From positions 1-60,257 of the forward strand of contig JAGOTR010000002.1 in the NCBI GenBank assembly GCA_018061685.1: DNA of 60,257 bases. Reading direction: 5' to 3'. Below are positions 3,434 through 23,944 of the stretch, in pieces (positions within the stretch are counted from its first letter, which is position 1; every line of letters starts with the position of its first letter). The translations under genes were made by a program, and so were the position numbers. This DNA comes from Candidatus Magasanikiibacteriota bacterium (lineage in GTDB: Bacteria; Patescibacteriota; Patescibacteriia; Magasanikbacterales; UBA922). The notes below the pieces were generated by a model. The model ran no database searches. It saw only the letters and a program-made list of their open reading frames with translations, and was not told the DNA's origin.

Positions 3434-3440
3434 ATTGGCA

Positions 3441-5372: not shown

Positions 5373-5384
5373 CACCGAGGCTAC

Positions 5385-6419: not shown

Positions 6420-6478
6420 ATATCCTCAATAGTTAGCAAATGAATACGGGTATTTTACCATAGATATGGCTTTTTGGC

Positions 6479-6506
6479 TTGATTTTTGTGTATATCATGC
6501 TATACT
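6479..6506 (+). promoter_or_regulatory. Sigma70-type promoter for folD (TTGATT-N16-TGcTATACT)
   Basis: -35 at 6479-6484, extended -10 TGC TATACT at 6498-6506. Lies inside the ORF-track N-terminal extension, which argues for the ATG at 6533. Confidence 0.55.
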
Positions 6507-6532
6507 CCGTGCATTATGGCTTTTTTGTATAT

Positions 6533-7369: not shown

Positions 7370-7387
7370 AAAAATCCTCACTTCGAC

Positions 7388-7412
7388 AAGCCTGCCTGTG
7401 GGCAGGCTTTTT
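7388..7412. terminator. Convergent-gene terminator hairpin (family D, GCCTGCC...GGCAGGC)
   Basis: AAGCCTGCC-TGTG-GGCAGGCTT followed by TTT. Sits between the folD stop (7369) and the stop of the minus-strand 1016-aa CDS (7443). Confidence 0.7.
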
Positions 7413-7442
7413 CAGTGTAAACTCGGATTTTTTTCATTATGA

Positions 7443-10400
7443 CTAAGATTTCCCTTCCATGAGCAATTCTTCTATTACATCATCAATTAACGTATCTAGA
7501 AACGTTATATTTTTTTCTTCCTGTTTTATATAAGATCCAACCTCTCTTTGGAGTCGCGCTTTGACTCTTTTTTCTACTTCTCCGTAGTGCTCATCAGAAA
7601 TAATCCCTTCCGCACGAGAGGGAATACTTTTTTGCACACCCATCCATACTTCTTGAAAATTTTCTAATTGTTTCTTTGCAGACCTCTCGAGGGGTGATGC
7701 TTCTACCAATCTACGACATCGATCTTTCAAACCATTGAGTCTTCCGTCGGCACTTTCTTTGTCTCGTTTTGTCGCAATACCACGAGCACCCAAAGTGCCA
7801 CTCAAGGTAGTACTGTCTTGTATCAGTGTACTTTTTGCTTCTTTTGCTTTTGGATCGGTTCCGGCAGGCACGGCTTCAACCATGGTACGAACAAGAAGAA
7901 GTCGATCTTGTATGGTGGCAATGATACGTGTTGATTCTACAGAATCAATTGTTTCTTCCTCCACCGATTTTTTTCTTTCAACAGCAGGAGAAGACTTTGT
8001 AGGGGCAGCCAGGGTATCTTTTGATCGCGAACCACCACCAAACGATCCTTTAAACGCCGCTAATTTTTGTGCTAAATCATCCTCTGTTAACGGCTCGGGT
8101 ATAACAGGCTCTTCTGGAGGCATTTCTCTATGTTGACGAAGAGCATCACCATGAGCAGTTTGAAAAGAAGCCAAAGCACTCGCCATGATTCCACTTCCTA
8201 CAGAATCTTTTTGTCCACCAGAAACTGCTGCTTTTATTTGTGCAGCGGAAATAAGACTAGTTGGAAGTGCGTCTCCCGTCCTTATAGAAAAGTCCATCCC
8301 TTCAGAAATTTCCTCCCATGAACGGAACACTATTGGATCAGGAATATCCACATACTCTCCATGCGGACCCCTGGTAGGATCCCATAATAAATGCCTATCC
8401 TTAAGGAGAGCAATTCCATCTTTATTGGCCATATACCTTCCCATAATTTCTCCTTTACCCATGCTCACCCAAGCAACAGACCAATTTGGATCTTCTACTA
8501 AACCAAACAAATCTTGTGAAATTTTTCCAGCACTTGTAGGAAATTCTGATATAGCTCGCAACCCGGTGACAGACCTCACTTCATCCTTATAGCCATGAGA
8601 GCTGGTGCCTCCGAAGCGAAGAGCAACAAGACCAGCATCGCCAGGTAAATAGGGCCGAGTGTATGGCAGACTTCGTGTATCACCTATCAGCTGGTTACCA
8701 AACCCCTCTCCTGGTTTTCTCCCAAATTTTTTTTGTAGTTCTTCTACCGGAATATACAGCACACACCACGGTGCAGGGCTACCTGGCGCCTCCATTGCTT
8801 CTTTTAATCGAGCTGCCTCTGTTGCTTTCTCTGCTCCCATACGTATTTCTGTGGCGTTCTTCTCTGCTAAGGCAGTTTGTATTTGGGCATCGACGCCGGC
8901 AAGAAAGGCGGACATCTTTTTTTCAGCATCGATCACATCTGATAAAGAATCGCTCCCGAGATCAGGATCTTTGCCTTGATAGTGCGGTATGTGTTTTATG
9001 CCAGCACGAATGCAACGTGTTTCTACCCCTTGCATAGCCACACGATGTCTTTTAACACTTGCACCTACCACTTCACGCAACACATCATCGGTTCTTTCTT
9101 CGGCTACTCGCTTTTCTATTTGTTCATGTATCGCTGCTATATTTGTGCTTCGAATGTTTTCATAGGTCTCAAAAAATGCATCTCGCCATTGCTGTGGCTT
9201 CTCTGCATACATATCTAACTCTTCAAATGTCATCCAAGCGGGAACATTCGCCTCTTCTAATAATTTTTCTAAATAGGCTTTTCTTTGTATCAAAAGATTT
9301 GCTTGTATCTGTTCTTTAGGTTCTTCTGTATCGGAAATTGCAAATTTACTTCCACCAGAATAATCTCCCAATGCTCCTGGTCGCTCAATTTTTTTGGCTC
9401 CTGCAATAAGATATTTTTGATTGACTCGGTGCGTCGTTTCAATATTCCCCAAGACCCATCTACCACCAGGCACAGTTATGGTTTCATCATAGCTCTCAAA
9501 TCGAAAAAATGCTTCTCTTGGACTCTGTAAAGAAACAATTTCCGTCATAGCCCTATCTAACTCTTGTCTTTTTTTGCCTTTTTCACCAAACAGAAAATCC
9601 CATCTTTGTTGAGCGGATGATTCGGGTGTGGAAAGTGCTTCTTGTAAAGAATGAATAATTTTTTCTCGTTGTTCGTTTGGAAGAGATTCAAATAATTCTT
9701 TATCTTCGATTCTAGGGACAAGACTCTCGATTGGGTTTAGCGTGGCGATATGAGCAAAAAATACCGGACCGTCTTCTATTTGGACACCTTGTTGTACCAT
9801 TTCTTTTTCCACTCGAATATCTGGTGTTGATTCTTTTTTAAAATGTCGAGATGTATATACGTCTCTCCAGTGAACCGTTCTTTCCCCATACATTGGGTAC
9901 GATAAAATAATATAATCAGAACCAGGATTAGATTGACGAAGTTCTTCTGGCTTACCAAATTCATCAACATGATCATCAGAAGTATACATCGAGTGAAACC
10001 TTTCTTTTTTCTTTTTTACCTCATAGTAGGGCACATTCGCTGCTTCTAATTTTTTTTTATCAACATCTGGGGCAGAACTATATGTAAAATTCCCCCCATC
10101 CATAGGTTGTGGTTTATTCGTGGTATGTAACGTATACTCCGGAACACCCCATACTTCTTTTCCGGTAAGTTTCAATTCCCAAATAGTCTCTGTCGCACAC
10201 TCACGACATTCCACCTCAACAGCAAATTTCTTTCCAGAATGTTCATTTATTTTTTTTACAAAAATCGGTGGCGTCGTCTGCTCTGTTTGACGTGAAGACG
10301 ACAATGTCGCTTGCAAATGCGTACACATCGTACTCTCATGACAAGTCACTTTTCCTTCTACACCAAGAACACTTAAACTCCCCTGCCTTTTATTTGCGTC

Positions 10401-10493
10401 ATACTCAATAAGTGCCGCTGTTTTTGGTGGTTCAAACGTAGTAAATCGAGTTCGTTCTGTTTCAGAAACATGTCCTCTACGAGGGTCTGACAT
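7443..10493 (-). CDS. Large orphan cytoplasmic protein (1016 aa), function unknown
   Basis: Uninterrupted ORF with backbone-like composition. No signal peptide or TM segment. CxxxxxxC ... CxxC near the N-terminus. Only 24 nt downstream of the epimerase gene, so probably co-transcribed. Confidence 0.75.
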   Translation of the reverse strand: MSDPRRGHVSETERTRFTTFEPPKTAALIEYDANKRQGSLSVLGVEGKVTCHESTMCTHLQATLSSSRQTEQTTPPIFVKKINEHSGKKFAVEVECRECATETIWELKLTGKEVWGVPEYTLHTTNKPQPMDGGNFTYSSAPDVDKKKLEAANVPYYEVKKKKERFHSMYTSDDHVDEFGKPEELRQSNPGSDYIILSYPMYGERTVHWRDVYTSRHFKKESTPDIRVEKEMVQQGVQIEDGPVFFAHIATLNPIESLVPRIEDKELFESLPNEQREKIIHSLQEALSTPESSAQQRWDFLFGEKGKKRQELDRAMTEIVSLQSPREAFFRFESYDETITVPGGRWVLGNIETTHRVNQKYLIAGAKKIERPGALGDYSGGSKFAISDTEEPKEQIQANLLIQRKAYLEKLLEEANVPAWMTFEELDMYAEKPQQWRDAFFETYENIRSTNIAAIHEQIEKRVAEERTDDVLREVVGASVKRHRVAMQGVETRCIRAGIKHIPHYQGKDPDLGSDSLSDVIDAEKKMSAFLAGVDAQIQTALAEKNATEIRMGAEKATEAARLKEAMEAPGSPAPWCVLYIPVEELQKKFGRKPGEGFGNQLIGDTRSLPYTRPYLPGDAGLVALRFGGTSSHGYKDEVRSVTGLRAISEFPTSAGKISQDLFGLVEDPNWSVAWVSMGKGEIMGRYMANKDGIALLKDRHLLWDPTRGPHGEYVDIPDPIVFRSWEEISEGMDFSIRTGDALPTSLISAAQIKAAVSGGQKDSVGSGIMASALASFQTAHGDALRQHREMPPEEPVIPEPLTEDDLAQKLAAFKGSFGGGSRSKDTLAAPTKSSPAVERKKSVEEETIDSVESTRIIATIQDRLLLVRTMVEAVPAGTDPKAKEAKSTLIQDSTTLSGTLGARGIATKRDKESADGRLNGLKDRCRRLVEASPLERSAKKQLENFQEVWMGVQKSIPSRAEGIISDEHYGEVEKRVKARLQREVGSYIKQEEKNITFLDTLIDDVIEELLMEGKS

Positions 10494-10517
10494 ATAATAA
10501 AAAATAATTTTTTTTTA

Positions 10518-11429
10518 TTATACCATATCCATTTCTTTTTTGAGAGCGCCGATCCCCTCTTCCAAAGAAATAGTTGGCTCCCAGCCCAACAATTCTTTTG
10601 CTTTTGTTCTATTCGCTCCGGCATATCGTGGGTCCCCTGGTCGTTCTGGCACAAATACTTTTTCTCCACCAATAATGTCGACAATATCTAATACTGTTCT
10701 CGGATTACTATTGCCAATGTTAATGGTTTCCCCTTTTCCTACGGTGTCTTTTGTCATAGCCAATATGTTCGCTCGCACGACGTCGGACACATGAGTATAA
10801 TCTCGGTAATACATACCGTCACCACACACAGTCATAGGTTCGCCATTTTTTACTTGCTTCAAAAATCTTCCAATCACAAGTGCGTAGGCCCCATCAGGGT
10901 CAAAGTATGGACCGTATACATTAAAATAAATTAAGCTTACCGTTTGTACGCCATACAATTCGGCAAACAGTCGGCAATAATGTTCACCCGTTAATTTGTG
11001 TAAGGCGTATGGGCTAATTGGTTTTTTTATTTCACTATCTTCTTGAAGTAATTTTGCTTCATCCGATCCGTAGGTAGATGACGATGAAGAAAATACCACG
11101 CGTTTCACACCATGTTTTTTTGCGGCGAGTAATACTCTGAGTGTGCCATTCACGTTCACATCATGCGTTTCCCATGGGTATTCCACAGAAAAAGTCACGC
11201 GTGGCAATGCCGCCAAGTGAAAGATTCCGTCAATACCAACACATACTTTGTCGAGGTCAGCATCGTTACGAATATCACCCTCAACATAGGTTGCCCCTCC
11301 CTGCAAACGTTCTTCTTTTTTGCCACCTGCATAGTTATCTAACACCACCACCTCATGCCCTTCTGTAAGTAATTGCTTCACGATATTGGTGCCAATGAAT
11401 CCAGCACCGCCTGTGACGAGATATTTCAT
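10518..11429 (-). CDS. NAD-dependent nucleotide-sugar epimerase/dehydratase (extended SDR)
   Basis: TGGAGFIG Rossmann motif at the N-terminus and YxxxK (YALHK) catalytic motif. Substrate not determinable by eye. Confidence 0.85.
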   Translation of the reverse strand: MKYLVTGGAGFIGTNIVKQLLTEGHEVVVLDNYAGGKKEERLQGGATYVEGDIRNDADLDKVCVGIDGIFHLAALPRVTFSVEYPWETHDVNVNGTLRVLLAAKKHGVKRVVFSSSSSTYGSDEAKLLQEDSEIKKPISPYALHKLTGEHYCRLFAELYGVQTVSLIYFNVYGPYFDPDGAYALVIGRFLKQVKNGEPMTVCGDGMYYRDYTHVSDVVRANILAMTKDTVGKGETINIGNSNPRTVLDIVDIIGGEKVFVPERPGDPRYAGANRTKAKELLGWEPTISLEEGIGALKKEMDMV

Positions 11430-11458
11430 AGAAAAAATTAATTGAAGAAAAAATCATT

Positions 11459-12844
11459 TCATTGTTTAGCAGGTAAAAATGTACTACCAACAGCAATAAT
11501 AGCACACCCTGCTTCCTGTAATTCTGCATAGCGATGTTGCAGCATGCGTCTGCCGTCCATAATCAATGGTTTGAACGACTGCGAAAGAATGACGTCTCCG
11601 ACTCCACGAAATTGTGGCCAATCGGTTGAAATAATCACCACATCACAATTTGAAATTGCTTCATGTTCTTGTGAAACATACGCAACGTGCTCTGATTGAG
11701 GAAACAAATTGGCAAAAAATTCTTTTCCGGTTGGGTCATACACGCTGATATGGGCAACGTTTTCTTTCAACAATGTTTCAACGATATTAATGCTCGGAGA
11801 ATTACGAATGTCGTTGGTATCGCGTTTAAAGGCAACCCCCAAGAGTGCGACTCGTTTCCCTTGCCACGAAATATCCGCTTCTGTTTTGGCACGCTGCATA
11901 AATAAAGCAAGTTGTCTTTTATTTGCTGCATACGTTTCGTTTACCATAGCAGGATTTTTACCCGCTTCGGTGAGTTGGTGTGAAAGTGATCGTGCGTCTT
12001 TAATAAAACAACTACCGCCGGCATACAAACTATCATAAAATCCCCAACTACCAATCCGCTCATCGCTGGTTAAAATAGAACGAAGATTTTCATACTGAAT
12101 GCCGTCAAAGGCTTCTGCTGTTCTGCCAATAACATCAAAACACACGGCAACGCGATTGAACAAATAAAAATTTGCCAATAATTTTCCTGCGGCTGCCTCT
12201 TTTGGATTGACTTCAATATAGGTCACGTCTGGCGACGAAACGAATCGTTGATACACGTTTTTCATAATAGCAAAATCTTGTGCCGTCCACGCGCCAATCA
12301 CAATACGATTGGGTTTGAGTGAATCACGCACGGCATTGCCTTCTACCAAAAATTCTGGATTTGATACCACACCATAATTTTTTACCCCAGCAGCATTCAT
12401 AATTGCTGCCGTTTCGTCGACCATTGCAATTGGCACGGTACTTTTGTTGACAATTACTACATACTGCGATTGCGCTCCACCATTTCTTTTTGCAAGTGCG
12501 AGAGATAATTCTTTTGCCGCAGCATTGTAATAGGTTAAATTACTTTCGCCAGTTTCCCCTACTTCTGGCGTTGGTAAGCACATAAAAATGGCGTGTGCTG
12601 AATCAACAAAAGAAATGACTTCTTGGTAATCGGTGGTAAAGCGAATGCGTTCTTTATTGCGAATCAAAAGATCCCCAAGGCCTTTTTCAAACAAGCAAGA
12701 TTCAATAGTGTCTCGGTCAAACGAAGCAAGTTTTTGTATTTTATTTGGGTCAATATCGTAGACAAGCGTAGTGTGACCAGAATCAGCAGAAACGGCAGCA
12801 GAGCAAGCCCCAACGAAACCGGCGCCGATATAGAGAATGTTCAT
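11459..12844 (-). CDS. UDP-glucose/GDP-mannose dehydrogenase family nucleotide-sugar 6-dehydrogenase
   Basis: N-terminal IGAGFVG Rossmann motif, GGSCFxKD catalytic Cys motif, 461 aa. Confidence 0.85.
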   Translation of the reverse strand: MNILYIGAGFVGACSAAVSADSGHTTLVYDIDPNKIQKLASFDRDTIESCLFEKGLGDLLIRNKERIRFTTDYQEVISFVDSAHAIFMCLPTPEVGETGESNLTYYNAAAKELSLALAKRNGGAQSQYVVIVNKSTVPIAMVDETAAIMNAAGVKNYGVVSNPEFLVEGNAVRDSLKPNRIVIGAWTAQDFAIMKNVYQRFVSSPDVTYIEVNPKEAAAGKLLANFYLFNRVAVCFDVIGRTAEAFDGIQYENLRSILTSDERIGSWGFYDSLYAGGSCFIKDARSLSHQLTEAGKNPAMVNETYAANKRQLALFMQRAKTEADISWQGKRVALLGVAFKRDTNDIRNSPSINIVETLLKENVAHISVYDPTGKEFFANLFPQSEHVAYVSQEHEAISNCDVVIISTDWPQFRGVGDVILSQSFKPLIMDGRRMLQHRYAELQEAGCAIIAVGSTFLPAKQ

Positions 12845-12868
12845 ATAAGGAAAGAAAAGAATAGATTC

Positions 12869-12897
12869 ATAGTACCGTAGGCAGGGAGTTTTTTCAA
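12869..12897 (-). promoter_or_regulatory. Putative promoter of the dehydrogenase/epimerase/orphan operon (TTGAAA-N17-TACTAT)
   Basis: Read on the minus strand: -35 at 12892-12897, -10 at 12869-12874. Confidence 0.45.
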
Positions 12898-12907
12898 GCC
12901 ATACGTA

Positions 12908-12935
12908 TTGACAAAGCGAGTATTTTTGTATATAC
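12908..12935 (+). promoter_or_regulatory. Putative divergent promoter driving the first GC-rich CDS (TTGACA ... TGTATATAC)
   Basis: TTGACA at 12908-12913; TG-preceded TATATA/ATATAC at 12927-12935 (spacer 15-16). Confidence 0.4.
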
Positions 12936-12975
12936 CTGCCCTATCCCGCAACCACTGTCGAAAGGACAATATCAT

Positions 12976-13674
12976 ATGCGGACGTTCATTTCTTTCTTTC
13001 TCGCTCTGGCCTTTCCCCTCTTCTCCCTGGCAGAGGTGGAAAAAGTCACTGTGACCGAGGTGCGTCTTTTGCCCAAGGGAGGGGAAACCAACACCCTCCC
13101 CATGATCTTCATCCTGACTTGCAGCGATTGCTCAGGTCACGAAGTGGCAGAAAACGCAGTGAAGCGTGCCAGCGAACGGCTGGCCAAGGGAGTCTCCCTC
13201 CCCGACCGATTTCCGCTTCGAATCGGCTTCACCTACACCATCAATGGTGATACCTTTACCCCCACAGAAAAGGTTCACCGTGTGGTGGTCACGGTGCCGC
13301 CGCCCATGATGCCCAACCCTGACCCATGGCCATTTCGACGCCCTCACTGGGTGTCGCTCACCCTCATAGGGGTGGGAGCCGCGGGCATTACCACAGGCTT
13401 CATACTGGGCAATGAGTCGGTAAAGGCAGACAATGCTGCCTACATGTATGATCGAGGACTCGGCAGCAAAGTGGGGAACCAACTTCGCGCCGACGCCCTG
13501 AACTACGGGACAGGGGCTGGCTGGAGCCATCTTGTGGGGTGGACATTCCTCTTCACGGGCCTCGCACTGTGGCCCATGTTGGATGATCCTCCACTCATCC
13601 AAGTGGGAATACTCGATACGATTGGAAGAGAAGGTGGTGGCTTCACCTTCACGGGGAAGCACAACCTTTTCTGA
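12976..13674 (+). CDS. GC-rich secreted/membrane hypothetical protein (232 aa)
   Basis: AAAGGA SD. Signal peptide MRTFISFFLALAFPLFSLAEV. One internal hydrophobic helix. C-terminal Gly-rich strands ending in F. GC-rich codons unlike the backbone. Confidence 0.7.
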   Translation: MRTFISFFLALAFPLFSLAEVEKVTVTEVRLLPKGGETNTLPMIFILTCSDCSGHEVAENAVKRASERLAKGVSLPDRFPLRIGFTYTINGDTFTPTEKVHRVVVTVPPPMMPNPDPWPFRRPHWVSLTLIGVGAAGITTGFILGNESVKADNAAYMYDRGLGSKVGNQLRADALNYGTGAGWSHLVGWTFLFTGLALWPMLDDPPLIQVGILDTIGREGGGFTFTGKHNLF

Positions 13675-13684
13675 AAAAAAACAA

Positions 13685-13750
13685 AGGCTCCGTCCCCATG
13701 ACGGAGCCTCCCCCCAAAACATTTTTTAAACACTTCTAAAGTGTTTTTTT
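13685..13750 (+). terminator. Two tandem terminator hairpins after the 232-aa CDS
   Basis: AGGCTCCGTC/GACGGAGCCT (13685-13709), then AAACACTT/AAGTGTTT followed by a T-run (13728-13750). Confidence 0.6.
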
Positions 13751-13765
13751 ATATAGAAAGAAAAA

Positions 13766-13794
13766 TTGACAAATTATCAATATTATTGTAGTCT
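13766..13794 (+). promoter_or_regulatory. Putative promoter for the 1024-aa GC-rich CDS (TTGACA-N17-TAGTCT)
   Basis: Lies in a ~340-nt AT-rich spacer. A second extended -10-like ATGCTATACA sits at 13810-13819 inside the palindrome 13801..13825. Confidence 0.4.
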
Positions 13795-14052
13795 CACATG
13801 TTCTATTGTATGCTATACAATAGAATAAAAAGGCTAAAATTAGCAAAAAAATATATTCTCTTTTTTATAGTAATACACGATCTTTACAATAAAGATATAT
13901 TTTTGCTACTACCAAACAGGTTTGGCTTAGAAAAGAGAGATATTTTTTATGTCTTTCTTTTCTAGGCTAAACCTATGTTATTGACCATAATTCTTTGGGC
14001 AAAACATTGTTTTGGTCTAGCAATCGGGGCTCTGCCCCAAAGGAGAAACGCC

Positions 14053-17000
14053 ATGAATTTGCTCAAAGTCACGATGTTTTTTTTCTTGACATGTTTTCTC
14101 AGCTGCCTCGGGGAATTTCCCCCCGAGCCGCCCTGCAGCAGCACCAGCGAGTGCGAGTCGCGGAACCCCGGACTCACCTGCGTCAACGGAGCCTGCGTCG
14201 CCAAGGGCGATGCGGGCATTGAGCCGGGTGACACCGGCGTGGATGATGCGGAGCCCCAGGACGCAGCTCGCCAGAACGACGCTGGGCCCACCGGCGATAC
14301 GGGGCAAGCGACCGACACGGGCGGCGACGCGTCGCCCACGGATGCAATCGTCCATACGGGTGACGCAACCCCCACGGGCGATGCCACGTCGTCGACTGAG
14401 CTGTGCAACGGCTTGGACGATGACACCGATGGCACCATCGACGAAACCCCCATCGAAGCAGGGCAACCCTGCAACGAAGGGATTCCCGATGGCTGCAACG
14501 GAAGCACCGTCTGTGAAGACGGTGCAGTGCAATGCCGAGTAGAAAATGCCAACACCCCCGAGCTCTGCAACGGGGTGGATGACAACTGCAACGGCGCCAT
14601 CGACGAAGGCAACCCCGAAGGGGATGCCGCGTGTGACACCAACGTGCCCGGCATCTGCGCCGAAGGGGAAACCATCTGCGAGGATGGCGTCCTCAACTGC
14701 CTCCAGCTCAATCAAGCTGGAATGGACATCTGCGACGGCATGGACAACGACTGCAACGGCGGCGTGGACGACGACTGCGGCGAGCAGCGCTGCCAACCCG
14801 TAGGTAGCGAGCGACCCTGCTACTCGGGCCGTCAAGGCACCGAAGACGTTGGCCCTTGCCGAGGAGGCCAGCAGCGTTGTGGCAACAACAATTTGTGGGG
14901 ATCTTGCATTGGAGAGGTAACCCCTCTCCGTGCTGATGCCTGCGATGGCGTGGACAACGACTGCGATGGCAGCATGGATGAAGACTTCCGGGCAGGCGAA
15001 GAAATTTGCCTGTTGCCCGGACGAGAGGCATTGTGCCAGGTTGGTCTTCGGGCTTGTGCCGAAGGCCGATTGATTTGTGTAGAAAATCCCGCCCACACCC
15101 CCCAGCCTGAACGCTGCGACGGGGTGGACAACGACTGCGACGGCTTCGTCGATGACGCGGTACAAGCCGTGGTCGACGGGTTCTTTTGCAACGACCCGTG
15201 CGAGGACGGACAAGAGGCGCAGCCAGATTGCCGTAACGGCGAGTGGATGTGCCGATGCCCACCTCCCCTCCCAATCGACGCCGGGATTCCGGTGGAAGAT
15301 GCAGGAGTGGAAGATGCGGCTCCCCCGCCCCCTGACGCAGCAGCCTGCCAGCCTCGGCAGGAAATCTGCGACGGCATGGACAACGACTGCGATGGTCGCA
15401 CCGACGAAGGCTTTGGCAACATCGGCCAGCCCTGTTCGGCAGGCGTTGGTGCCTGCCGTAACGACGGGCAGATCGTCTGCACCGACGACGGCCTCAACAG
15501 CCGATGTTCGGCACAAGCAGGCAGCCCCACGCCCGAGGTCTGCGACGGCGTGGACAATGACTGCAACGGCATCAGTGATGATGGCGTTGAAGAATCGATG
15601 CCGTGCTCCACCGGGCAGCCCGGAATTTGCAATCCGGGTATGACCCGGTGCGGTGGAAACGTCGGGATGCAGTGCATCTCGATTGAAGAAGAGCCACTGG
15701 AAGAACAATGCGACAACCAAGACAACGACTGCGACAGCATCGTTGACGAAGGTGTCCGCAACGCGTGCGGCCAGTGTGGCCCGCCTCCAAGTGAGGTGTG
15801 CAATGGCCGTGACGACAACTGTGATGGTCGCATCGACGAGGGCGTGGTGAACGCCTGCGGCGAATGCGGGGTGCCACCAGCAGAAATTTGCGACAGTGAA
15901 GACAATGACTGTGACGGTCGGACCGACGAAAATCTCATCTGCGACAATTGCAACGCCGGAGAAGAACGCAGCTGCTACAATGCAGATGCAGAAACCGAAG
16001 GCATTGGCGTTTGCCAGGGCGGGATCCAGCGATGTTTGCTGGATCTCGAAAGAGATGAAATCCGCTGGGGAACCTGCGAAGGTATGGTCACCCCCAGCGC
16101 CGAAATCTGCGACGGCCTCGACAACAACTGTGATGGCTCTGTCGACGGCGGCAATCCGGGGGGCGGCATTGACTGCTCTACTGGCCTCGACGGCGTTTGC
16201 GCCGCGGGGAGCACGGAGTGCCGCAATGGTGCGATCGTCTGCTCGCAAATTTACCAAGGCGAAGCAGAAGTTTGTGACGGTTTTGACAACAACTGCAATG
16301 GCACCATCGACGAGGGAAACCCTGGCGGTGGACGTGCTTGCCACGTTGCAGGTCAAATGGGAGCGTGTGCAGATGGCGGCACATCATGCCGTCAGGGGGA
16401 GCTCATCTGCGTGCAGCTGACCAACCCCGAGCAAGAAACATGCAACCAAATTGATGATGACTGTGACGGTACAGTCGATGAAAATCGGGTGTGCGAGCCT
16501 TGTGAGGAAGGCTACACCCTGATTCCATACCTCAACCTTTGTGTCAAAACCACAGAGGTCACGGTAGCAGAATATGAGGCGTGTGCAAATTGTGCAGCAC
16601 CCGCCACTCAGCATGAACAAAACTCCCAGTGCAACGGTGGTGCACCTGATCGGGCAAACCACCCAATCAACTGCGTTTCTTGGACACACGCAAACGCATT
16701 CTGCCAAGAGCAAGGCGGACGCCTTGTAACATTGGCAGAGATGAACCAAATCACGTTTGGAGAACACTTGGAACGCCGCCGCCCCTGGGGAAATGAGGGT
16801 GCTGTGGATTGCAACCAAGTAATCTTCAACGAAGGCGCAGCAGCCAACACACCTGGATGCGGGGCCAACACGACAGCACCTGTGTGCAGTCGTCCGCTGG
16901 GGAATACCCCAGAGGGCATCTGCGACACTGTTGGCAACGCACGCGAATGGACAGCCGATGGCCCTTGCGGTGCACAAAATGGGCACGTTGCAACGGCGTG

Positions 17001-17127
17001 CTCTTGGGTGTCTGGGCAGGGGGAGTGTATTCGTGAAAACGAACACTCATTCCTTTGCGAGGCACAAAATCGTGCCGCTATTGTGCATGGGTTCCGCTGC
17101 GTACAGGAACCTCGGCAAATCGAATAA
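14053..17127 (+). CDS. GC-rich Cys/Asp-rich lipoprotein: 13 CxGxDNDCDG metal-binding-type repeats plus a C-terminal FGE-sulfatase/C-type-lectin-like domain
   Basis: AGGAG SD 6 nt before the ATG at 14053 (ORF-track start 13975 trimmed). Signal with lipobox-like FLSC. 13 copies of C-[DN]-G-x-D-[DN]-[DN]-C-[DN]-G-x-x-D-[ED]. C-terminus has NHPINCVSW, GGRLVTLAEM, GNAREW and HGFRC motifs. Confidence 0.85.
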   Translation: MNLLKVTMFFFLTCFLSCLGEFPPEPPCSSTSECESRNPGLTCVNGACVAKGDAGIEPGDTGVDDAEPQDAARQNDAGPTGDTGQATDTGGDASPTDAIVHTGDATPTGDATSSTELCNGLDDDTDGTIDETPIEAGQPCNEGIPDGCNGSTVCEDGAVQCRVENANTPELCNGVDDNCNGAIDEGNPEGDAACDTNVPGICAEGETICEDGVLNCLQLNQAGMDICDGMDNDCNGGVDDDCGEQRCQPVGSERPCYSGRQGTEDVGPCRGGQQRCGNNNLWGSCIGEVTPLRADACDGVDNDCDGSMDEDFRAGEEICLLPGREALCQVGLRACAEGRLICVENPAHTPQPERCDGVDNDCDGFVDDAVQAVVDGFFCNDPCEDGQEAQPDCRNGEWMCRCPPPLPIDAGIPVEDAGVEDAAPPPPDAAACQPRQEICDGMDNDCDGRTDEGFGNIGQPCSAGVGACRNDGQIVCTDDGLNSRCSAQAGSPTPEVCDGVDNDCNGISDDGVEESMPCSTGQPGICNPGMTRCGGNVGMQCISIEEEPLEEQCDNQDNDCDSIVDEGVRNACGQCGPPPSEVCNGRDDNCDGRIDEGVVNACGECGVPPAEICDSEDNDCDGRTDENLICDNCNAGEERSCYNADAETEGIGVCQGGIQRCLLDLERDEIRWGTCEGMVTPSAEICDGLDNNCDGSVDGGNPGGGIDCSTGLDGVCAAGSTECRNGAIVCSQIYQGEAEVCDGFDNNCNGTIDEGNPGGGRACHVAGQMGACADGGTSCRQGELICVQLTNPEQETCNQIDDDCDGTVDENRVCEPCEEGYTLIPYLNLCVKTTEVTVAEYEACANCAAPATQHEQNSQCNGGAPDRANHPINCVSWTHANAFCQEQGGRLVTLAEMNQITFGEHLERRRPWGNEGAVDCNQVIFNEGAAANTPGCGANTTAPVCSRPLGNTPEGICDTVGNAREWTADGPCGAQNGHVATACSWVSGQGECIRENEHSFLCEAQNRAAIVHGFRCVQEPRQIE

Positions 17128-17137
17128 CCCACCAAAC

Positions 17138-17245
17138 AGGGGTATTTCGCACGCAGGCGAAATACCCCTCCAAAATTTTGCTCGACTGCATTTCCCCAGT
17201 CGAGCCAATTCAAAAGCACTTCATATACATGAAGTGCTTTTGTAT
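17138..17245 (+). terminator. Three consecutive hairpins after the GC-rich CDS
   Basis: 17138-17169 (12-13 bp stem), 17181-17204 (8 bp), 17212-17241 (13 bp, AAAAGCACTTCAT/ATGAAGTGCTTTT) followed by T-rich sequence. Confidence 0.65.
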
Positions 17246-17304
17246 ATGAAAGCAATATCTTTGCCTTAAATAAGCAAAAAAATGGTTGCAAAAATCCAAT
17301 ATAT

Positions 17305-18495
17305 ATGGCAGTATATTCATACGAATATACTATGCCACCTACTTCCACAAAAAAAAATATTCTCCTATTGATTACCAAAGGAGAAATAGGAGGTGCCCAA
17401 ATGTCGGTCATCAATCTTGCTCGATACCTCAAACAGCAAGCCTACTCAGTGACGCTTGGATTTGGCAAAGGCGATTTTTTAATTGAAAAAGCAAACCAAG
17501 AAAATATTCCTTATTTTCATCCCAAACATCTTATACGAACACAAAATATATTAAAAAATATTTTATTTATTTTCGAAATAAAAAAATACTGTACCAATAA
17601 CAAAGTAGATATTCTCCATCTCAATAGCACCAATACACTCTTTGCGGCAATAGGTGCTTCCTTATCCAAACAAAAACCAAAAATTATTTTTACTTTTCGA
17701 GGCCTTTCGCTTCTCGATCCTTTATATACATCATCAAAAATAAAAAGAATAACGTATCGCTTATTTTTTCTTTTTTTATTACGGTTTGTTGATGAACAAG
17801 TATATGTGAGTGAAGAAAACCTCCAATTTGCAAAAAGAATAAAAATTGCAAAAAATGCCCATGTGATTGCAAATGCAGTCAATATATCAAAAAGCGATAT
17901 ACTGCCACAAGATATCGCACGAAAAAAATTGAGTGATATGCTCAATCAAGATGTACGTAACACATTTATTATTGGCTCTATCGGGCGGCTGGCATATCAA
18001 AAAAATTATGAATTTTTAATAGAGCAAATGATCGAACTACACAATCAAATACCCAATATCCGATGCATTATTATCGGCGATGGTCCACAAAAAAATAAAC
18101 TTCAAAAGCTTGTTGCATCGAAACAATTAACTCATTGTGTTTTATTTACCAATAGCCTCGTGGATGCATATCAATTCCTCTCCGCATTTGATATGTTTGT
18201 ACTTCCCTCACGATATGAAGGCATGTCGATAACACTCTTAGAAGCGATGACCGCGGGACTTCCAATACTTGCAAGTGATGTGCAAGGAAACCATGACATC
18301 GTATCTCATGCCGGAGAATTATTTGTATTTAACAATAGCACACAGTTTCAAGAAAAAACGCTCAATATTATTCAAAATAAAGCATACAGAAAAGAATTAT
18401 CTCAAAAAGCACTGATCGAATCGAAAAAATTTTCCATGGAACATACAGGTGAACAATACATTCACCTATACGAAGCACACTCACCTATCAAGTGA
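17305..18495 (+). CDS. Glycosyltransferase, GT4/group 1 family
   Basis: C-terminal EGxxxxxxEAMxxGxPxxxS motif (EGMSITLLEAMTAGLPILAS). Alternative ATG at 17332. Confidence 0.8.
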   Translation: MAVYSYEYTMPPTSTKKNILLLITKGEIGGAQMSVINLARYLKQQAYSVTLGFGKGDFLIEKANQENIPYFHPKHLIRTQNILKNILFIFEIKKYCTNNKVDILHLNSTNTLFAAIGASLSKQKPKIIFTFRGLSLLDPLYTSSKIKRITYRLFFLFLLRFVDEQVYVSEENLQFAKRIKIAKNAHVIANAVNISKSDILPQDIARKKLSDMLNQDVRNTFIIGSIGRLAYQKNYEFLIEQMIELHNQIPNIRCIIIGDGPQKNKLQKLVASKQLTHCVLFTNSLVDAYQFLSAFDMFVLPSRYEGMSITLLEAMTAGLPILASDVQGNHDIVSHAGELFVFNNSTQFQEKTLNIIQNKAYRKELSQKALIESKKFSMEHTGEQYIHLYEAHSPIK

Positions 18496-18514
18496 TCTCG
18501 TTTTTTTATACCGT

Positions 18515-19765
18515 ATGAAAAAAATATATACGTACATACGAAACCAAATCAAACAGTATCTGAAAATAGATATACACTATCTCGCAAAAAGTGGCTTTTG
18601 GTTAACCCTAAAACAACTTGTTATTTCTATAACAAGCTTTTTACTTACCATTGCACTTGCCAATGTACTCACTCCTGATGAATATGGTTTGTTTCGATAT
18701 ATACTAGCGGCAGTAAGCATATTAATTCTTACTTCATTACCTGGCATGAGTACGGCACTCCAGCAAACAGTAGCACAAGGAAACGATAAAACTATTGTTT
18801 CTATTATAAAAACACGGCTATACTGGGGAAGTATCGGGGCAATTCTATGTTTGGCATTGTCTGGATTTTATTATATTCAACAAAACATATCGATTGCGTC
18901 GATCTATCTTGCACTCACCCCAATTCTGTTGGTATTGTCACCATTTTCTTCCTTTGATGATTATTTAATTGGCAAAAAAAAGTTTCAATTATCAACAATG
19001 CTTACCACAATCGGCATTGTAGGACAAATGCTATTTCTTCTCAGTATTTTGTATGTCACACACAATATCAACGTAGTTATTTTGAGTTATTTTTTGTTTA
19101 CTGCAGCTTTTCGATTTTTTTCGTATTCATATGTAAAAAAAAGATTTACGGAAGATATAAGACAAAGTGTGTCTGATACAGAAAGTATTACCTATGGGAA
19201 GCACCTGTCAGCCATGAATATTCTTCCGACCATTGGCAAACATATTGATAAAATTATTATCTTTCACTATTTCAGTGCCGCTGAATTGGCCATATATAGT
19301 TTTGCTATCGCCCCGGTAGAATACATATCGTCTTTTTTAGTAAATATTAATACAGCACTATTACCCAAATTAACCACAAAAAAAAATACGGATATACAAA
19401 AAAACAAATACCGTCACATGATTCTTTTGGGTATCTGTATTGTCCCTATCGTTATTATCTATATGATAAGTACCCCATATATATTTCACACCATATTCCC
19501 TGGATATAGTGCGGCGATAGTTCTTTCACAAATATACGCAATTATACTATTAACATATATAAGTATTATTCCTGCCACTTTTTTAGAGGCAAAAAAACAA
19601 ATAAAAAAACTCTATTACCTTCGAACAGTGATTCCCATCATCACAATTGTGTTGTTATTTTGTTCTATTCCGTATGGTATTTTAGGAATCATTTGTGGAA
19701 AAATTATTATCCAAGTAATTCGTCTGGGATACTTGTTATATCTCACTAAACATAGCGAATCATAA
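18515..19765 (+). CDS. Wzx-like polysaccharide flippase (MOP superfamily membrane protein)
   Basis: About 12 hydrophobic segments, glycan-locus context. Start trimmed to the ATG at 18515, after the upstream TGA stop at 18493-18495. Confidence 0.65.
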   Translation: MKKIYTYIRNQIKQYLKIDIHYLAKSGFWLTLKQLVISITSFLLTIALANVLTPDEYGLFRYILAAVSILILTSLPGMSTALQQTVAQGNDKTIVSIIKTRLYWGSIGAILCLALSGFYYIQQNISIASIYLALTPILLVLSPFSSFDDYLIGKKKFQLSTMLTTIGIVGQMLFLLSILYVTHNINVVILSYFLFTAAFRFFSYSYVKKRFTEDIRQSVSDTESITYGKHLSAMNILPTIGKHIDKIIIFHYFSAAELAIYSFAIAPVEYISSFLVNINTALLPKLTTKKNTDIQKNKYRHMILLGICIVPIVIIYMISTPYIFHTIFPGYSAAIVLSQIYAIILLTYISIIPATFLEAKKQIKKLYYLRTVIPIITIVLLFCSIPYGILGIICGKIIIQVIRLGYLLYLTKHSES

Positions 19766-19786
19766 TTTGATACCCATATTTTCTGT

Positions 19787-20890
19787 ATGTATATATCCAA
19801 ACACACAATAAAACAAGTACTAAAAAAAATATATATATTACATATCACGACATCACTGGTCAGAGCAATGAAACACATACGGTCACAAAATATTCTTCCG
19901 TTTTGTGCAAAATATACTTTTTTGAGTAAACTCTATTATGTATTTTTTGGTGAATTTAATCGAGAACAACAAGCGGTACTCAATGGAATACTGAAGCATA
20001 CGAACACCGAAAGCGGGATAAATCAATATACACTTGTACGCAACATTCATAGAATTGAAAAAGGAATTGCCATGCCAGATAGACGCCCTGTGTTTGCGAC
20101 AACATATCTCAAAGAAACGATTGCATCATACGAAATAACACTCAAGCAATATACACACACAAATGAGTCCATACACACAGAACAACTTCTTTGGGCATAC
20201 GATGTACTAAGTCATTATTTTAGTATTGTTGACACATCTGATCCTATTATTGATGGGTGTAAAAATATTTTTTATAGTCTTCCGCAGATTGTAAAAAATG
20301 AATCATCTCAAAAAAAACTTCCGTATAAAAGAAAAGACAATTTATGTAATACGGTACAATTTCAAGACTTACAAAATCTTGCAAAACAACGCCGTTCAAT
20401 CCGATGGTTTTTACAAAAGCCAGTTGAAAGAGAAAAAATTGACCAGGCATTGTCTATTGCAGAACTATCCCCGAGTGATTGCAATAGATCACCTATTTCA
20501 TTTCTTATTATTGATGATCCGGTACTGGTAAAAAAAATTGCAACCATTCCACTTGGCACACCGGGGTTTGCCGAAAATATACCGGTGATAGTGGTGGTCA
20601 TAGGAAATTTAGATTCTTACCCCTCGGAACGAGACCGTCATAATATATATATTAATACAGGTCTTCAAAGTATGGCCTTTATGTATGCACTTGAAACCCT
20701 CGGATTATCGACGTGTCCGCTGAATTGGCCGGATATTGAAGAAAAAGAAAGAGAGTTGCAACTCATTCTCAAATTAGCGCCCTGGAAACGCCCTACCCTC
20801 CTTATGGCCTTGGGCTATGCTGATCCGGAAGGCGCAGTACTTTACTCTGCCAAACGAGGCATTGCACAAGCAAGGACATATAATATTTAG
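19787..20890 (+). CDS. Nitroreductase-family protein with an ~170-aa N-terminal extension
   Basis: RRSIRWF...IDQALSIAELSPSDCN nitroreductase signature in the C-terminal half. Confidence 0.7.
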   Translation: MYISKHTIKQVLKKIYILHITTSLVRAMKHIRSQNILPFCAKYTFLSKLYYVFFGEFNREQQAVLNGILKHTNTESGINQYTLVRNIHRIEKGIAMPDRRPVFATTYLKETIASYEITLKQYTHTNESIHTEQLLWAYDVLSHYFSIVDTSDPIIDGCKNIFYSLPQIVKNESSQKKLPYKRKDNLCNTVQFQDLQNLAKQRRSIRWFLQKPVEREKIDQALSIAELSPSDCNRSPISFLIIDDPVLVKKIATIPLGTPGFAENIPVIVVVIGNLDSYPSERDRHNIYINTGLQSMAFMYALETLGLSTCPLNWPDIEEKERELQLILKLAPWKRPTLLMALGYADPEGAVLYSAKRGIAQARTYNI

Positions 20891-20903
20891 TTATTTTTTG
20901 TAT

Positions 20904-22040
20904 ATGGTGATAGAAATAAAAGGTGCTGAATTTGTCAATAAAGGTTCAGAATTAATGATTCTTTCTATTGTAAAAGAAATAGAGAAAAGAAATATACCAG
21001 CCAAAATAGTGATGGAACCCACGAGAGACTACGAAAAAAAAGCTCGGCTTGGTATATATCACAAAATTTCCAAAAGAAAATTTGGTATTCAATGGGGGGG
21101 GTGGATGGGAGGGACGATCCCCCGAGTCCTTCGACAATCCTATGGTCTTATAGCACAAAAAGAAGTAACAGCTATTTTTGACGCATCAGGTTTTGCCTAT
21201 GGCGATCAATGGGGAGAAAAAAATATCAAAGATATGGCTCGGTATGCAAGCCAGTGCCGTACACAACATAAAAAAGTTATCATACTTCCACAAGCATGTG
21301 GGCCATTTGAAAAAGAAAACGTAAAAAAATATGTACCAAAATTAGTCGCCAATGTTGATTTATTCTTTTGTCGTGATAGGGAGTCATACAACTACATCAC
21401 CAGCATTGTTGGTAAAAAAACACATATTCATATATTTCCAGATTTTACTGTATTGCTTGAAGGGACTCCTCCTCCACCAACATTAGAAATAGAAAAAAAG
21501 ATTGGTATTATTCCCAACGTAAAAATGATATCAGAAACAGACAAAAAAACTGCAGAAACATACAAAAAATTTTTAATTGCAGTCGTTGCTTATTTAAATA
21601 AAATAAACCAGCCATACTTTTTATTGGCACATCAAAAAAAATCTGATACAGCCTTTATACGAGAACTCTTTCCCACTATTTCTTCCGAACACATTATTCA
21701 TCACGATGATCCTCAAGTAATAAAAGGAATTATTGGTAATGCCAAAGGCATTATTAGCTCACGCTATCATGCCAGTATCAGTGCGCTTTCATCGGGTGTT
21801 CCCACTCTTGGCACAAGCTGGAGTCATAAATATGAAGAATTGTTCCGTGCCTACAATGCCACAGAATATCTTCTTAACATGAAACAATATACTCTTACAC
21901 AAGTCGAAGCGTCACTCAACATGTTGATACACGACGATAAATCTCGAGCCATGCAACACGTGTTACGTACGCAAGCAGCCGTGCATAAAAAAGAAGCAAA
22001 AATAATGTGGGACAGAGTGTTTGAGACAATCATGAAATAA
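20904..22040 (+). CDS. Polysaccharide pyruvyl transferase family protein
   Basis: SSRYHASISALSSGVPTLGTSWSHKYEELF region typical of the family. Start trimmed to the ATG at 20904. Confidence 0.7.
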   Translation: MVIEIKGAEFVNKGSELMILSIVKEIEKRNIPAKIVMEPTRDYEKKARLGIYHKISKRKFGIQWGGWMGGTIPRVLRQSYGLIAQKEVTAIFDASGFAYGDQWGEKNIKDMARYASQCRTQHKKVIILPQACGPFEKENVKKYVPKLVANVDLFFCRDRESYNYITSIVGKKTHIHIFPDFTVLLEGTPPPPTLEIEKKIGIIPNVKMISETDKKTAETYKKFLIAVVAYLNKINQPYFLLAHQKKSDTAFIRELFPTISSEHIIHHDDPQVIKGIIGNAKGIISSRYHASISALSSGVPTLGTSWSHKYEELFRAYNATEYLLNMKQYTLTQVEASLNMLIHDDKSRAMQHVLRTQAAVHKKEAKIMWDRVFETIMK

Positions 22041-22048
22041 AAATGTAT

Positions 22049-23944
22049 TCACGAAGCATCCTCAATCATCCATTTTTCATACCACATTTGAAATACCAAA
22101 ATAATCCACAGTTGTTCAACATTTTTACTTGTTACTTCATTTCGTAATTGTTGAATAAACGAAAGTGAAAATATATTTTGTTTTTCAATAAATGTATCTG
22201 AAAGATATTTTTCACGTAATTCATCTCCCCAAGAAGATCTAAGCCAATGATAAAGCGGTGGAACAAACCCACTTTTTTTTCTTTCAAATAAAGATGGTGA
22301 TACATAGTCGCCCAAGATATTTTTGAGAAGTTGCTTCGTTCCGACTTGTTTTTTTATTTTTGGATATGGTATCTGTGAAACGAATTGAAGAATTGATTCA
22401 TCCAAAAAAGGCTCGCGAGCTTCCACACCGTGTGCCATACTCATTCTATCACTTTTGACTAAAATATCATTAGGTAAGTATTGCTGTATATCCCATAGTT
22501 GCATTTGTTGAATAGAATTTTTTTCAGAAACAACAAATATATCGGATAACACATTATGATCAGAAGGATCAAGTAGCAACTGATTGATTTCTTTTGTATG
22601 AAAAAAAGTAGTACTTGCTAAAAACATATCCTTGAGTGTTCGGTGTCCGCTTATACGTTTCAACTTATATATTTTTCTTTCAATATTACTATAGGCACTT
22701 ATACTCGTGCGTTTGATACACTGTCTATATACGTTGGCCACAAAGGAGATCGGGAACAAAGTCAAAAGCCGAACACCCCATCGATTGATACGAGAATGAA
22801 GCAAAGCATCGATAGCTTGATATTTGGTATATCCAGCAAATAACTCATCTCCCCCATCACCCGATAAAGCAACCTTCACATACTGCCTAGTATATTTTGC
22901 TAATAAATACGTAGGAATAGCTGAGGGGTCAGCAAAAGGCTCGTCAAAAAAATTGGGTAATTGTTTAATAACACCATATACATCACTATCTGTAACATAC
23001 AACTCATGATGATCTGTTTGAAGTGCATTGGCTATTTTTTTTGCATACGGAGCTTCATCGTATTCACGTTCTGAAAAACCGATGGTAAATGTTTGCAATT
23101 TTTGTTTTTGATCACGCGCTAACACGGCCGTAACAAGTGACGAATCTATTCCGCCACTAAGAAAAACACCTATATCAACATCAGCTACCGTTCTATATTG
23201 AAAAGACCTTTTCAGAAGAGTATGTAACGATTCTATTGATGTATTTGATGTTTGTTTTATTGAAATATTTGGCCGCCAATATGGCTGTATATTAAGGGCA
23301 CCATCTTCACTCACGGTCAAATATGTTCCAGGTTCAAGCTTTAAAATATGTCTATATATAGAAAATTGACCAGGAGTATAGCCTAGCTGCAAATATAGTT
23401 GAAGTGCTTCACGGTCTAATTCTTTAGCATACATTCCAGACGCTAATATGGCTTTTATCTCTGAAGCAAACAAAAATAATTTATTTGCATGATAATAATA
23501 CAGTGGTTTCACACCAAAACGATCGCGAACTAAAATCATCTCTTTTTTTTCATGATCCCAAATAGCATAGGCAAACATACCAATGCACTTTTGAAAACTC
23601 TCTTTTCCCCACTCGGCATAGGCATGCAAAACAACTTCAGTATCAGTATCATTCAAAAAAATATGACCCAAATTTTGTAATTGTTTTTTTAATTCTCGAT
23701 AGTTATATACTTCGCCATTAAACGTAATTGTGTATGTTTTATTGTTGTGCAAAATGGTCATGGGTTGACTTCCTCGCGATGAAACATCAATAATAGATAA
23801 CCGTGTATGGCCAAATGCCACGTGACTGTGTGTATCAACAAAAAAATCAGCCCCATCAGGCCCCCGATGCCTCAGTGCGTGTACCATGGGTTCAAGTATC
23901 TCTTTTGTTAATTGAGGTGATATACCACCAATAATGCCACACAT
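22049..23944 (-). CDS. asnB: Asparagine synthase (glutamine-hydrolysing) family amidotransferase
   Basis: MCGI N-terminal nucleophile, SGGxDSS PP-loop (LSGGIDSS), 631 aa. Common in glycan loci. Confidence 0.85.
   Translation of the reverse strand: MCGIIGGISPQLTKEILEPMVHALRHRGPDGADFFVDTHSHVAFGHTRLSIIDVSSRGSQPMTILHNNKTYTITFNGEVYNYRELKKQLQNLGHIFLNDTDTEVVLHAYAEWGKESFQKCIGMFAYAIWDHEKKEMILVRDRFGVKPLYYYHANKLFLFASEIKAILASGMYAKELDREALQLYLQLGYTPGQFSIYRHILKLEPGTYLTVSEDGALNIQPYWRPNISIKQTSNTSIESLHTLLKRSFQYRTVADVDIGVFLSGGIDSSLVTAVLARDQKQKLQTFTIGFSEREYDEAPYAKKIANALQTDHHELYVTDSDVYGVIKQLPNFFDEPFADPSAIPTYLLAKYTRQYVKVALSGDGGDELFAGYTKYQAIDALLHSRINRWGVRLLTLFPISFVANVYRQCIKRTSISAYSNIERKIYKLKRISGHRTLKDMFLASTTFFHTKEINQLLLDPSDHNVLSDIFVVSEKNSIQQMQLWDIQQYLPNDILVKSDRMSMAHGVEAREPFLDESILQFVSQIPYPKIKKQVGTKQLLKNILGDYVSPSLFERKKSGFVPPLYHWLRSSWGDELREKYLSDTFIEKQNIFSLSFIQQLRNEVTSKNVEQLWIILVFQMWYEKWMIEDAS

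Follow-up and report, generated by a model that had tools for sequence, protein, structure and literature searches.

Two GC-rich genes for exported proteins beside a surface-glycan locus of a contig labelled Candidatus Magasanikbacteria: probable horizontal acquisition amid host-type spacers

The MopE-related proteins of Myxococcota (Pfam PF11617) are giant, cysteine-rich and secreted, and in them CxGxDNDCDGxxDE motifs are arranged in tandem behind a secreted or lipoprotein N-terminus. Metagenomic proteins are also found in which PF11617 repeats are followed by a C-terminal PF03781 domain (P0108/L023, P0093/L024 and P0084). Variable proteins of diversity-generating retroelements, with regions of the formylglycine-generating enzyme (FGE) type or of the C-type-lectin fold, are common in the candidate phyla radiation (CPR). 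Foreign genes detectable by their composition have been described in the ultra-small, low-GC genomes of Patescibacteria (PMC12455944). The present work concerns contig JAGOTR010000002.1 (assembly GCA_018061685.1), a complete contig of 60,257 nt referred to below as the window, on which every protein carries the NCBI label Candidatus Magasanikbacteria (Patescibacteria/CPR; locus tags KBD15_). Two adjacent GC-rich genes, gene 1 (12976-13674) and gene 2 (14053-17127), together called island I, are embedded in its backbone of 38-40% GC at the edge of a surface-glycan locus.

Our analysis indicates that the two envelope genes of island I were probably acquired horizontally from one or several GC-rich donors and then partly ameliorated; they are now surrounded by signals of the host genome type. 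Since horizontal gene transfer (HGT) and genomic islands are known in Patescibacteria (PMC12455944), island I adds to a kind already documented; the islands described there are larger and carry prophages or restriction-modification cargo, whereas island I is made of single-gene units with host-type spacers and no mobility genes. Gene 2 shares with the Myxococcota MopE proteins, its best matches outside the lineage, the tandem motifs and the type of N-terminus, but identity is 30-40%, the named proteins come mostly from typically GC-rich lineages whereas gene 2 lies in a 38% GC genome, and with its 13 motifs gene 2 is the shorter protein and has an FGE-fold domain at its C-terminus. The latter architecture is that of the metagenomic MopE+FGE proteins, which are 31-34% identical to gene 2; their neighbourhoods are uniformly of 65-71% GC, with a G+C content at third codon positions (GC3) of 0.70-0.91 and no step at gene borders, unlike island I. 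The C-terminal domain of gene 2 belongs to the fold family of FGE and its paralogue SUMF2 (PDB 1y1e, 2aft, 1y4j), compared with which it is shorter, lacks an obvious catalytic cysteine pair, is carried on an exported repeat stalk and is probably non-catalytic. As in the retroelement variable proteins, an FGE-type domain forms the C-terminus of a surface protein in a CPR-labelled genome and variation is concentrated there, but gene 2 varies by replacement of the whole domain (~290 aa, 33% identity) and not by adenine-specific changes in a short region.

The composition of island I differs sharply from that of the backbone. GC and GC3 are 0.569 and 0.65 in gene 1 and 0.597 and 0.64 in gene 2, while backbone genes have a mean GC3 of 0.301 ± 0.039 (n=35, range 0.23-0.40), which places the two genes at z = 9.0 and 8.7, respectively. 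First and second codon positions are likewise enriched in G+C and the amino-acid content is foreign too; the shift at third positions denotes an effect at the codon level, beyond an amino-acid effect alone. Relative synonymous codon usage (RSCU) of the two genes is anticorrelated with that of the backbone (r = -0.17 and -0.18) and correlated with that of GC-rich contigs carrying the MopE+FGE architecture (r = +0.42 to +0.69), for which reason a foreign origin is the best explanation. Between gene 1 and gene 2, codon usage correlates at r 0.68. The rise in GC begins at the start codons and ends shortly past the stop codons, whereas the spacers have GC contents of 0.39 (12845-12975), 0.32 (13675-14052, with 150-nt windows as low as 0.21) and 0.39 (17128-17304), all within the range of backbone intergenic regions (0.24-0.48). 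The first-pass annotation of this DNA, which had described genes of about 58% G+C between AT-rich flanks, was thus accurate on this point. A fusion of foreign coding sequences (CDSs) to signal peptides derived from the host genome was also considered and ruled out, since GC3 is high already in the signal-peptide region, within the first 20 codons.

Database matches of gene 2 point in the same direction as codon usage. Apart from one orthologue (P0004, 76% identical), 3875 other matches were recovered, MopE proteins of 30-40% identity; most are listed without organism name, and those with a name belong mostly to Myxococcota, Polyangiaceae, Sandaracinus, Bradymonadia and 'Deltaproteobacteria'. 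No further match bears a Patescibacteria name among the matches listed. The MopE+FGE architecture itself was found on uniformly GC-rich contigs, namely L023 (71% GC, GC3 0.90) and L024 (65% GC). The donor of gene 2 was most likely a Myxococcota-type bacterium, as judged from these affinities, and that of gene 1 may belong to an unsampled lineage. With no close donor recovered and no homologue of gene 1 outside the lineage, we would place the donors at the level of 'GC-rich, Myxococcota-like'. On L023, GC falls to 46% at 3611-3919, upstream of the MopE+FGE gene; GC-rich donors too have promoter regions of lower GC, though these remain above the 21-32% of the window spacer.

The junctions of island I, for which the first-pass annotation had proposed a check by read mapping, are physically real. 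A 28-kb Logan contig (L003, SRR11088391), of which 17.5 kb were retrieved, matches window positions 5343-22844 at 100% identity and takes in the whole of island I, and a JGI contig (L002, 3300043411) covers the gene 1 junctions at 100% identity (11779-13820). Two other samples contain diverged alleles. Contig L005 (ENA ERZ2272710) carries an allele of gene 1 with 83% DNA and 75% protein identity, and around this diverged CDS the 58-nt upstream region and the 27-nt terminator hairpin are identical to those of the window. Contig L006 (Logan SRR25018354) carries an allele of gene 2 with a GC3 of 0.67, which is preceded by 218 nt of AT-rich spacer with 89% identity to that of the window and is followed by glycan genes with GC of 0.35-0.39. 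Since these diverged alleles show the same transitions between AT-rich and GC-rich DNA, they provide stronger support than the identical contigs. All of this support comes from assembled contigs.

An artefact of assembly or binning, by which foreign GC-rich fragments would have been joined to a low-GC contig, is extremely improbable. In its favour, a third assembly (L001, GCA_020047435.1) continues past window position 14218 with 105 nt of unrelated GC-rich DNA, so chimeric joins do occur at these GC-rich k-mers. However, the path of the window is repeated at 100% identity by Logan contigs, one of which spans island I and another a second group of GC-rich genes in the window (island II, see below), and by JGI contigs, one of which, over island II, has 4 single-nucleotide differences. 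The same AT-rich to GC-rich junctions recur in the alleles from two other samples, and the steps in composition coincide with start and stop codons of intact open reading frames (ORFs) that have Shine-Dalgarno (SD) sites. The 105-nt tip of L001 (3328-3432 of contig JAHZTN010062946.1) is a chimera of that metagenome assembly and not of the window.

Both genes of island I are intact and under purifying selection. Over the first 737 codons of gene 2, comparison of the window with L006 gave a synonymous divergence (dS) of 0.25 and a ratio of nonsynonymous to synonymous divergence (dN/dS) of 0.19. For gene 1, dN/dS was 0.23 and dS 0.75 over 230 codons against the other allele (P0002), which establishes it as a real gene despite its orphan status. 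GC3 is alike between alleles (0.64/0.67 in gene 2, 0.65/0.68 in gene 1). A two-state decay toward the four-fold GC of the host genome (0.36) fits the data if four-fold GC was 0.80 in the ancestor of gene 1 and 0.75 in that of gene 2. The model thus does not reject partial amelioration after an older acquisition, nor does it call for GC to be actively maintained. The two genes are kept by purifying selection and would have drifted part of the way toward host composition.

An alternative is that the two genes are native to the lineage and that their GC-rich codons are actively maintained, for example by GC-biased gene conversion at a hot spot of recombination or by selection on the mRNA or translation of exported, cysteine-rich proteins. 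We regard this as improbable. It would account for the near-equal GC3 of both alleles despite a dS of 0.25-0.75, and the locus does recombine, as seen from a dS that varies from 0.07 to 0.44 along gene 2, from a breakpoint within that gene (Table 1) and from gene 1, where flanks are identical although 39% of four-fold sites in the CDS differ (window against L005). Such identical flanks around a diverged CDS point to recombination or to strong balancing of old alleles. All six GC-rich genes of the window encode exported proteins, and the absence of an outside homologue of gene 1 would also be expected of a native gene. On the other side, the shift is very large (GC3 +0.35 to +0.55) and sets in exactly at the start codons, it extends to GC1, GC2 and amino-acid content, the named matches lie mostly in GC-rich genomes of the Myxococcota type with a Patescibacteria name on no other match, and the neutral decay model is not rejected.

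Several observations weigh against horizontal acquisition as proposed here, or limit it. High GC3 persists at a dS of 0.25-0.75, which fits decay from a richer ancestor and active maintenance alike. No close donor was found, the best matches of gene 2 outside the lineage being ~35% identical and driven by the repeats, and for gene 1 some 15 billion proteins yielded no homologue from outside the lineage. When the neighbouring UDP-glucose dehydrogenase was used as query, no relative devoid of the island was found in GTDB representatives or JGI metagenomes, where the best matches reached 66% identity on a truncated contig (GTDB species representatives) and 39% (JGI metagenomes); insertion at a divergent promoter, as proposed in the first-pass annotation, is for this reason not demonstrated. 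The three assemblies that are 100% identical may share a sample or stem from closely related ones. The label Candidatus Magasanikbacteria is the submitter's annotation of a metagenome-assembled genome. As to the host-type signals, promoter-like sites are at chance level, with 4 found against 2.7 ± 1.7 in shuffled sequences. Finally, neither an integrase, a transposase, a tRNA junction nor a convincing flanking direct repeat was found in or beside island I, which is thus not a classical mobile island, though HGT does not require such signatures.

The latter result also bears on the possibility that both genes arrived together as cargo of a mobile element or phage that later lost its genes for mobility. 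Gene 1 and gene 2 are adjacent, nearly equal in GC3 (0.65/0.64) and correlated in codon usage, and they border a variable glycan locus, the kind of site where integration and recombination are common. However, no integrase, transposase or phage family was matched, repeats at the flanks do not exceed chance, the relatives present in viral contigs are distant MopE-repeat proteins and none is close, and the 378-nt spacer that separates the two genes is of host type, so that we consider joint arrival on such an element a poor explanation. PADLOC gave zero matches for either gene, and the sole PHROG match was between the FGE-like region and a family labelled kinase.

In the product of gene 2, a signal peptide and an acidic low-complexity linker precede 13 MopE motifs, and a domain of the FGE-sulfatase fold stands at the C-terminus. 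The CxGxDNDCDGxxDE motifs were located with a regular expression (nt 14404-16482) and PF11617 matched with an E-value of 2.3e-53 (178.5 bits for a cut-off of 27); cysteines number 98 (9.6%). PF03781 matched aa 831-1017 (nt ~16543-17103) with an E-value of 1.3e-17 (64.8 bits for a cut-off of 23.3). The N-terminal pattern reads MNLLKVTMFFFLTCFLS-C in the window and, for the other allele, ...TPLLS-C; Cys18 is conserved and, as judged by inspection of this pattern, lipidation at the lipobox-like LSC motif is putative. Together with the signal peptides of both products, this motif fits the envelope role that had been suggested for the island. The start codon at 14053 has an SD site and was preferred to the in-frame ATG at 13975, which in the L006 orthologue is followed by a stop owing to a 1-nt deletion. 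The ATG at 13975 and an 11-codon upstream ORF at 13949 were rejected, neither being conserved in L006.

The C-terminal domain of gene 2 is most likely an adhesin-like, ligand-binding head of the FGE/C-type-lectin-like type and not an enzyme. In human FGE, the catalytic, copper-binding cysteine pair takes the form CxxxxC near the C-terminus. By eye, no CxxxxC was seen within the last 60 residues of either gene 2 allele, and alignments to catalytic FGE end ahead of the catalytic loop; it is for these two reasons that a non-catalytic binding head is favoured. That the domain is instead an active formylglycine-generating or related oxidase, acting on substrates associated with the envelope or its glycans, seems unlikely. 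The PF03781 match, the NCBI name (SUMF1/EgtB/PvdO family) and the matches to FGE among PDB sequences would favour an enzyme. However, among these PDB matches (SUMF2 and FGE, 9e-9 to 1e-6) the best is the non-catalytic paralogue SUMF2, the domain is short (~190 aa), a 33%-identical version has been swapped in between strains, as is typical of binding heads, and a sulfatase gene was not found in the window. Against a binding role, it must be noted that it relies on an apparent absence of the cysteine pair judged by eye and on a low-confidence model: the predicted structure of the domain was poor (pLDDT 45), and Foldseek found FGE again and nothing else, with a TM-score of ~0.3. In the arrangement that we envisage, the 13 MopE motifs would form a stalk stabilised by disulfides or metal, which would present the FGE/C-type-lectin-like domain at its distal end.

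Comparison with L006 further showed that this head differs between strains. DNA is 91% identical from the spacer to position 16313 and then collapses; past this point the last two MopE motifs and the FGE-fold domain (~290 aa) are ~33% identical in protein, and a metagenomic match (P0224) is equally close in its FGE-fold domain (33%). The downstream glycan genes are unrelated between the two contigs, and such wholly different gene content indicates that the glycan locus is a replaceable cassette beside island I. The L006 locus (3414-13272) encodes methyltransferases, nucleotidyltransferases of the CMP-sugar type, a GFO/IDH oxidoreductase and an acetyltransferase. Three hairpins follow the other gene 2 allele as they follow that of the window, in the same order and with different stem sequences, which makes a related genome with this locus a better source of the swapped segment than direct transfer from a foreign donor. 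The head domain is exchanged between strains by recombination inside the MopE repeats, along with the adjacent glycan genes, the repeat stalk being what permits this joint replacement. A target of a diversity-generating retroelement was considered for the variable 3' end of gene 2 and rejected, as no reverse transcriptase domain was found in window ORFs of at least 150 aa and the region 16300-17200 has no second copy in the window that could serve as template repeat.

Gene 1 matched no family in Pfam, NCBIfam, PADLOC or PHROG. Among 5.8 billion clusters searched by indexed words and 1.84 billion representatives searched exhaustively with phmmer, its sole relative is the L005 allele; three further phmmer matches were discarded as spurious, being tandem-repeat proteins. 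In the product, a signal peptide (aa 1-19) is followed by a small domain of mixed alpha/beta type, a Pro-rich linker and a membrane helix (aa 125-146), with a second, weaker hydrophobic stretch at aa ~183-202. From this layout it would be a small, exported, membrane-anchored protein. The AlphaFold model, which was built on an alignment of two sequences, is unusable (pLDDT 32).

The 378-nt spacer between the two genes looks like ordinary host intergenic DNA, and a regulatory role is plausible in view of its promoter-like site, palindrome and conserved hairpin (Table 1). Ahead of gene 1, the second sample matches the window at 100% over positions 12919-12975, although its gene 1 CDS is 83% identical. 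The GC-rich hairpin at 13685-13709, also 100% conserved in the second allele, has its T-run on the minus-strand side, and the long hairpin at 13918-13974 is conserved in the orthologous L006 spacer. The palindrome at 13799-13825 resembles an operator; the contig of the other strain leaves it uncovered. SD-like sequences precede the ATG of gene 1 (AAAGGA) and of gene 2 (AAGGAG). Five hairpins had been reported earlier for this region, all of which are present and fold far better than shuffled sequences (z -2.9 to -7.6). The TTGACA sequence, the minus-strand TTGAAA-N17-TACTAT and the SD sites listed in the same annotation are likewise present; as promoters, however, these sites remain predictions because their count does not exceed that of shuffles. 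Rfam returned for the spacers only sub-threshold matches to generic hairpin (miRNA) models. Each gene of island I probably constitutes a separate transcription unit. Its GC-rich part extends from the start codon to the stop codon plus a short GC-rich hairpin, and it is in the intergenic DNA, of host-type composition, that the promoter-like sites and SD sequences are located, as are the long leader hairpins and the AT-rich terminators. Promoter, operator and terminator functions are all putative, being read from sequence patterns.

Table 1. Positions in the window of island I, its signals and neighbouring features
Feature	Position	Strand	Description
Resident UDP-glucose dehydrogenase/epimerase operon	genes 11459-12844 and 10518-11429	minus	Pfam assignment
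Promoter-like TTGAAA-N17-TACTAT	12869-12897	minus	Upstream of the UDP-glucose dehydrogenase/epimerase operon; consensus scan, prediction
Gene 1 upstream region	12908-12975	+	TTGACA at 12908, AT-rich -10 area, leader, AAAGGA SD
Gene 1	12976-13674	+	232-aa orphan, signal peptide and membrane helix; translation, hydropathy, composition
GC-rich 10-bp hairpin	13685-13709	+	-18.9 kcal/mol, z -7.6; directly after gene 1
AT-rich hairpin, then T-run	13728-13746	+	-5.4 kcal/mol, z -2.9; terminator-like, gene 1
Gene 2 promoter-like area	13766-13825	+	TTGACA at 13766; CTCACA-N17-TACAAT at 13793-13821
Perfect 11+11 palindrome TTCTATTGTAT-gc-ATACAATAGAA	13799-13825	+	Overlaps predicted -10 hexamer; -12.2 kcal/mol, z -5.5
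26-bp hairpin	13918-13974	+	-37 kcal/mol, z -9.3; 78 nt upstream of gene 2 start codon
Gene 2	14053-17127	+	1024-aa secreted lipoprotein-like protein; Pfam PF11617 and PF03781
Recombination breakpoint between strains	16265-16315	+	Within 12th MopE motif of gene 2
Hairpin after gene 2	17138-17169	+	-22.7 kcal/mol, z -7.0
Hairpin after gene 2	17180-17205	+	-15.1 kcal/mol, z -7.3
Hairpin after gene 2, then T-run	17211-17242	+	-18.6 kcal/mol, z -6.3
Island II genes	53221-55539, 55896-56630, 57023-57868, 57893-58465	minus	GC3 0.81-0.85

Island II contains four genes. Each product starts with a signal peptide, and in two of the four a lipobox-like motif stands ahead of a cysteine. Its 772-aa protein contains thrombospondin type 3 repeats and 'slime-mold' cysteine repeats, and its named matches are Myxococcota or 'Deltaproteobacteria' metagenome-assembled genomes. 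Each gene has its own upstream spacer of lower GC, one of which holds TTGACA-N17-TATAGT (58774-58746, minus strand). The mosaic of GC-rich CDSs and lower-GC spacers that the first-pass annotation had seen in both islands therefore exists in island II as well, but the plus-strand ORFs it had listed there are antisense artefacts. Its proposal of a single shared origin did not hold: no homologous protein or spacer and no significant shared spacer motif were found between the islands, and GC3 is ~0.65 in one and 0.83 in the other, from which we conclude that they do not reflect one event. At most, the two islands share a kind of cargo (secreted, cysteine-rich proteins with domains of the Myxococcota type) and a kind of donor.

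Island I thus provides a well-documented case of probable HGT into a small, low-GC genome, with foreign CDSs that are intact and under selection amid host-type expression signals. That all GC-rich genes of the window code for exported proteins suggests that the surface of this lineage is partly built from borrowed parts, and the signal of Myxococcota-like domains could guide the prediction of hosts or partners for an uncultured lineage of Patescibacteria. A more specific reading, which we hold to be speculative and rather unlikely, is that an episymbiont of the Magasanikbacteria type has, on repeated occasions, taken genes for exported, cysteine-rich surface proteins in the Myxococcota style from a partner with a GC-rich genome, and uses the products for attachment or camouflage. 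If so, strain-specific exchange of the FGE/lectin-like head and of the glycan genes would set partner specificity, and these islets would be a clue, from sequence alone, to the host of this CPR lineage. No reports were found in the literature on the sample accessions or on HGT in Magasanikbacteria.

Backbone genes include those for PilT, PBP2, FolD and an ECF sigma factor, along with the long surface-glycan locus. Two large minus-strand proteins of 1016 and 1228 aa (7443-10493 and 36057-39743) have essentially zero family matches, and a DUF11/CARDB protein (42974-44824) and an FG-GAP/GHL15 protein (46313-48379) are also present; these four suggest that the contig is rich in native surface proteins as well. 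TTGACA is rarer across the window than expected (30 occurrences against 49.7 ± 7.2 in shuffles) and several occurrences lie upstream of genes. If TTGACA is functional, such depletion and placement would be those expected of a -35 element avoided elsewhere.

Hairpins or palindromes with arms of 22-32 nt were found in many backbone intergenic regions (such as 39966-40123, 41964-42027 and 42853-42912), and for this reason the hairpins of the island I spacers are considered host-type and not island-specific. Long ones also occur in the island II spacers (55665-55718 and 56669-56721). Long intergenic hairpins appear to be a genome-wide habit of this organism and may be mRNA stabilisers, terminators or small mobile repeats. 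The hairpins at 5294-5350 and 52419-52479 share the arm CGAAGCAATCT.T.ATAGA, with 4 matches where none is expected by chance, and constitute a small repeated element or family in the low-GC backbone. Just upstream of island II, small low-GC ORFs (52026-52382 and 52573-52959) encode coiled-coil-like proteins with no family match.

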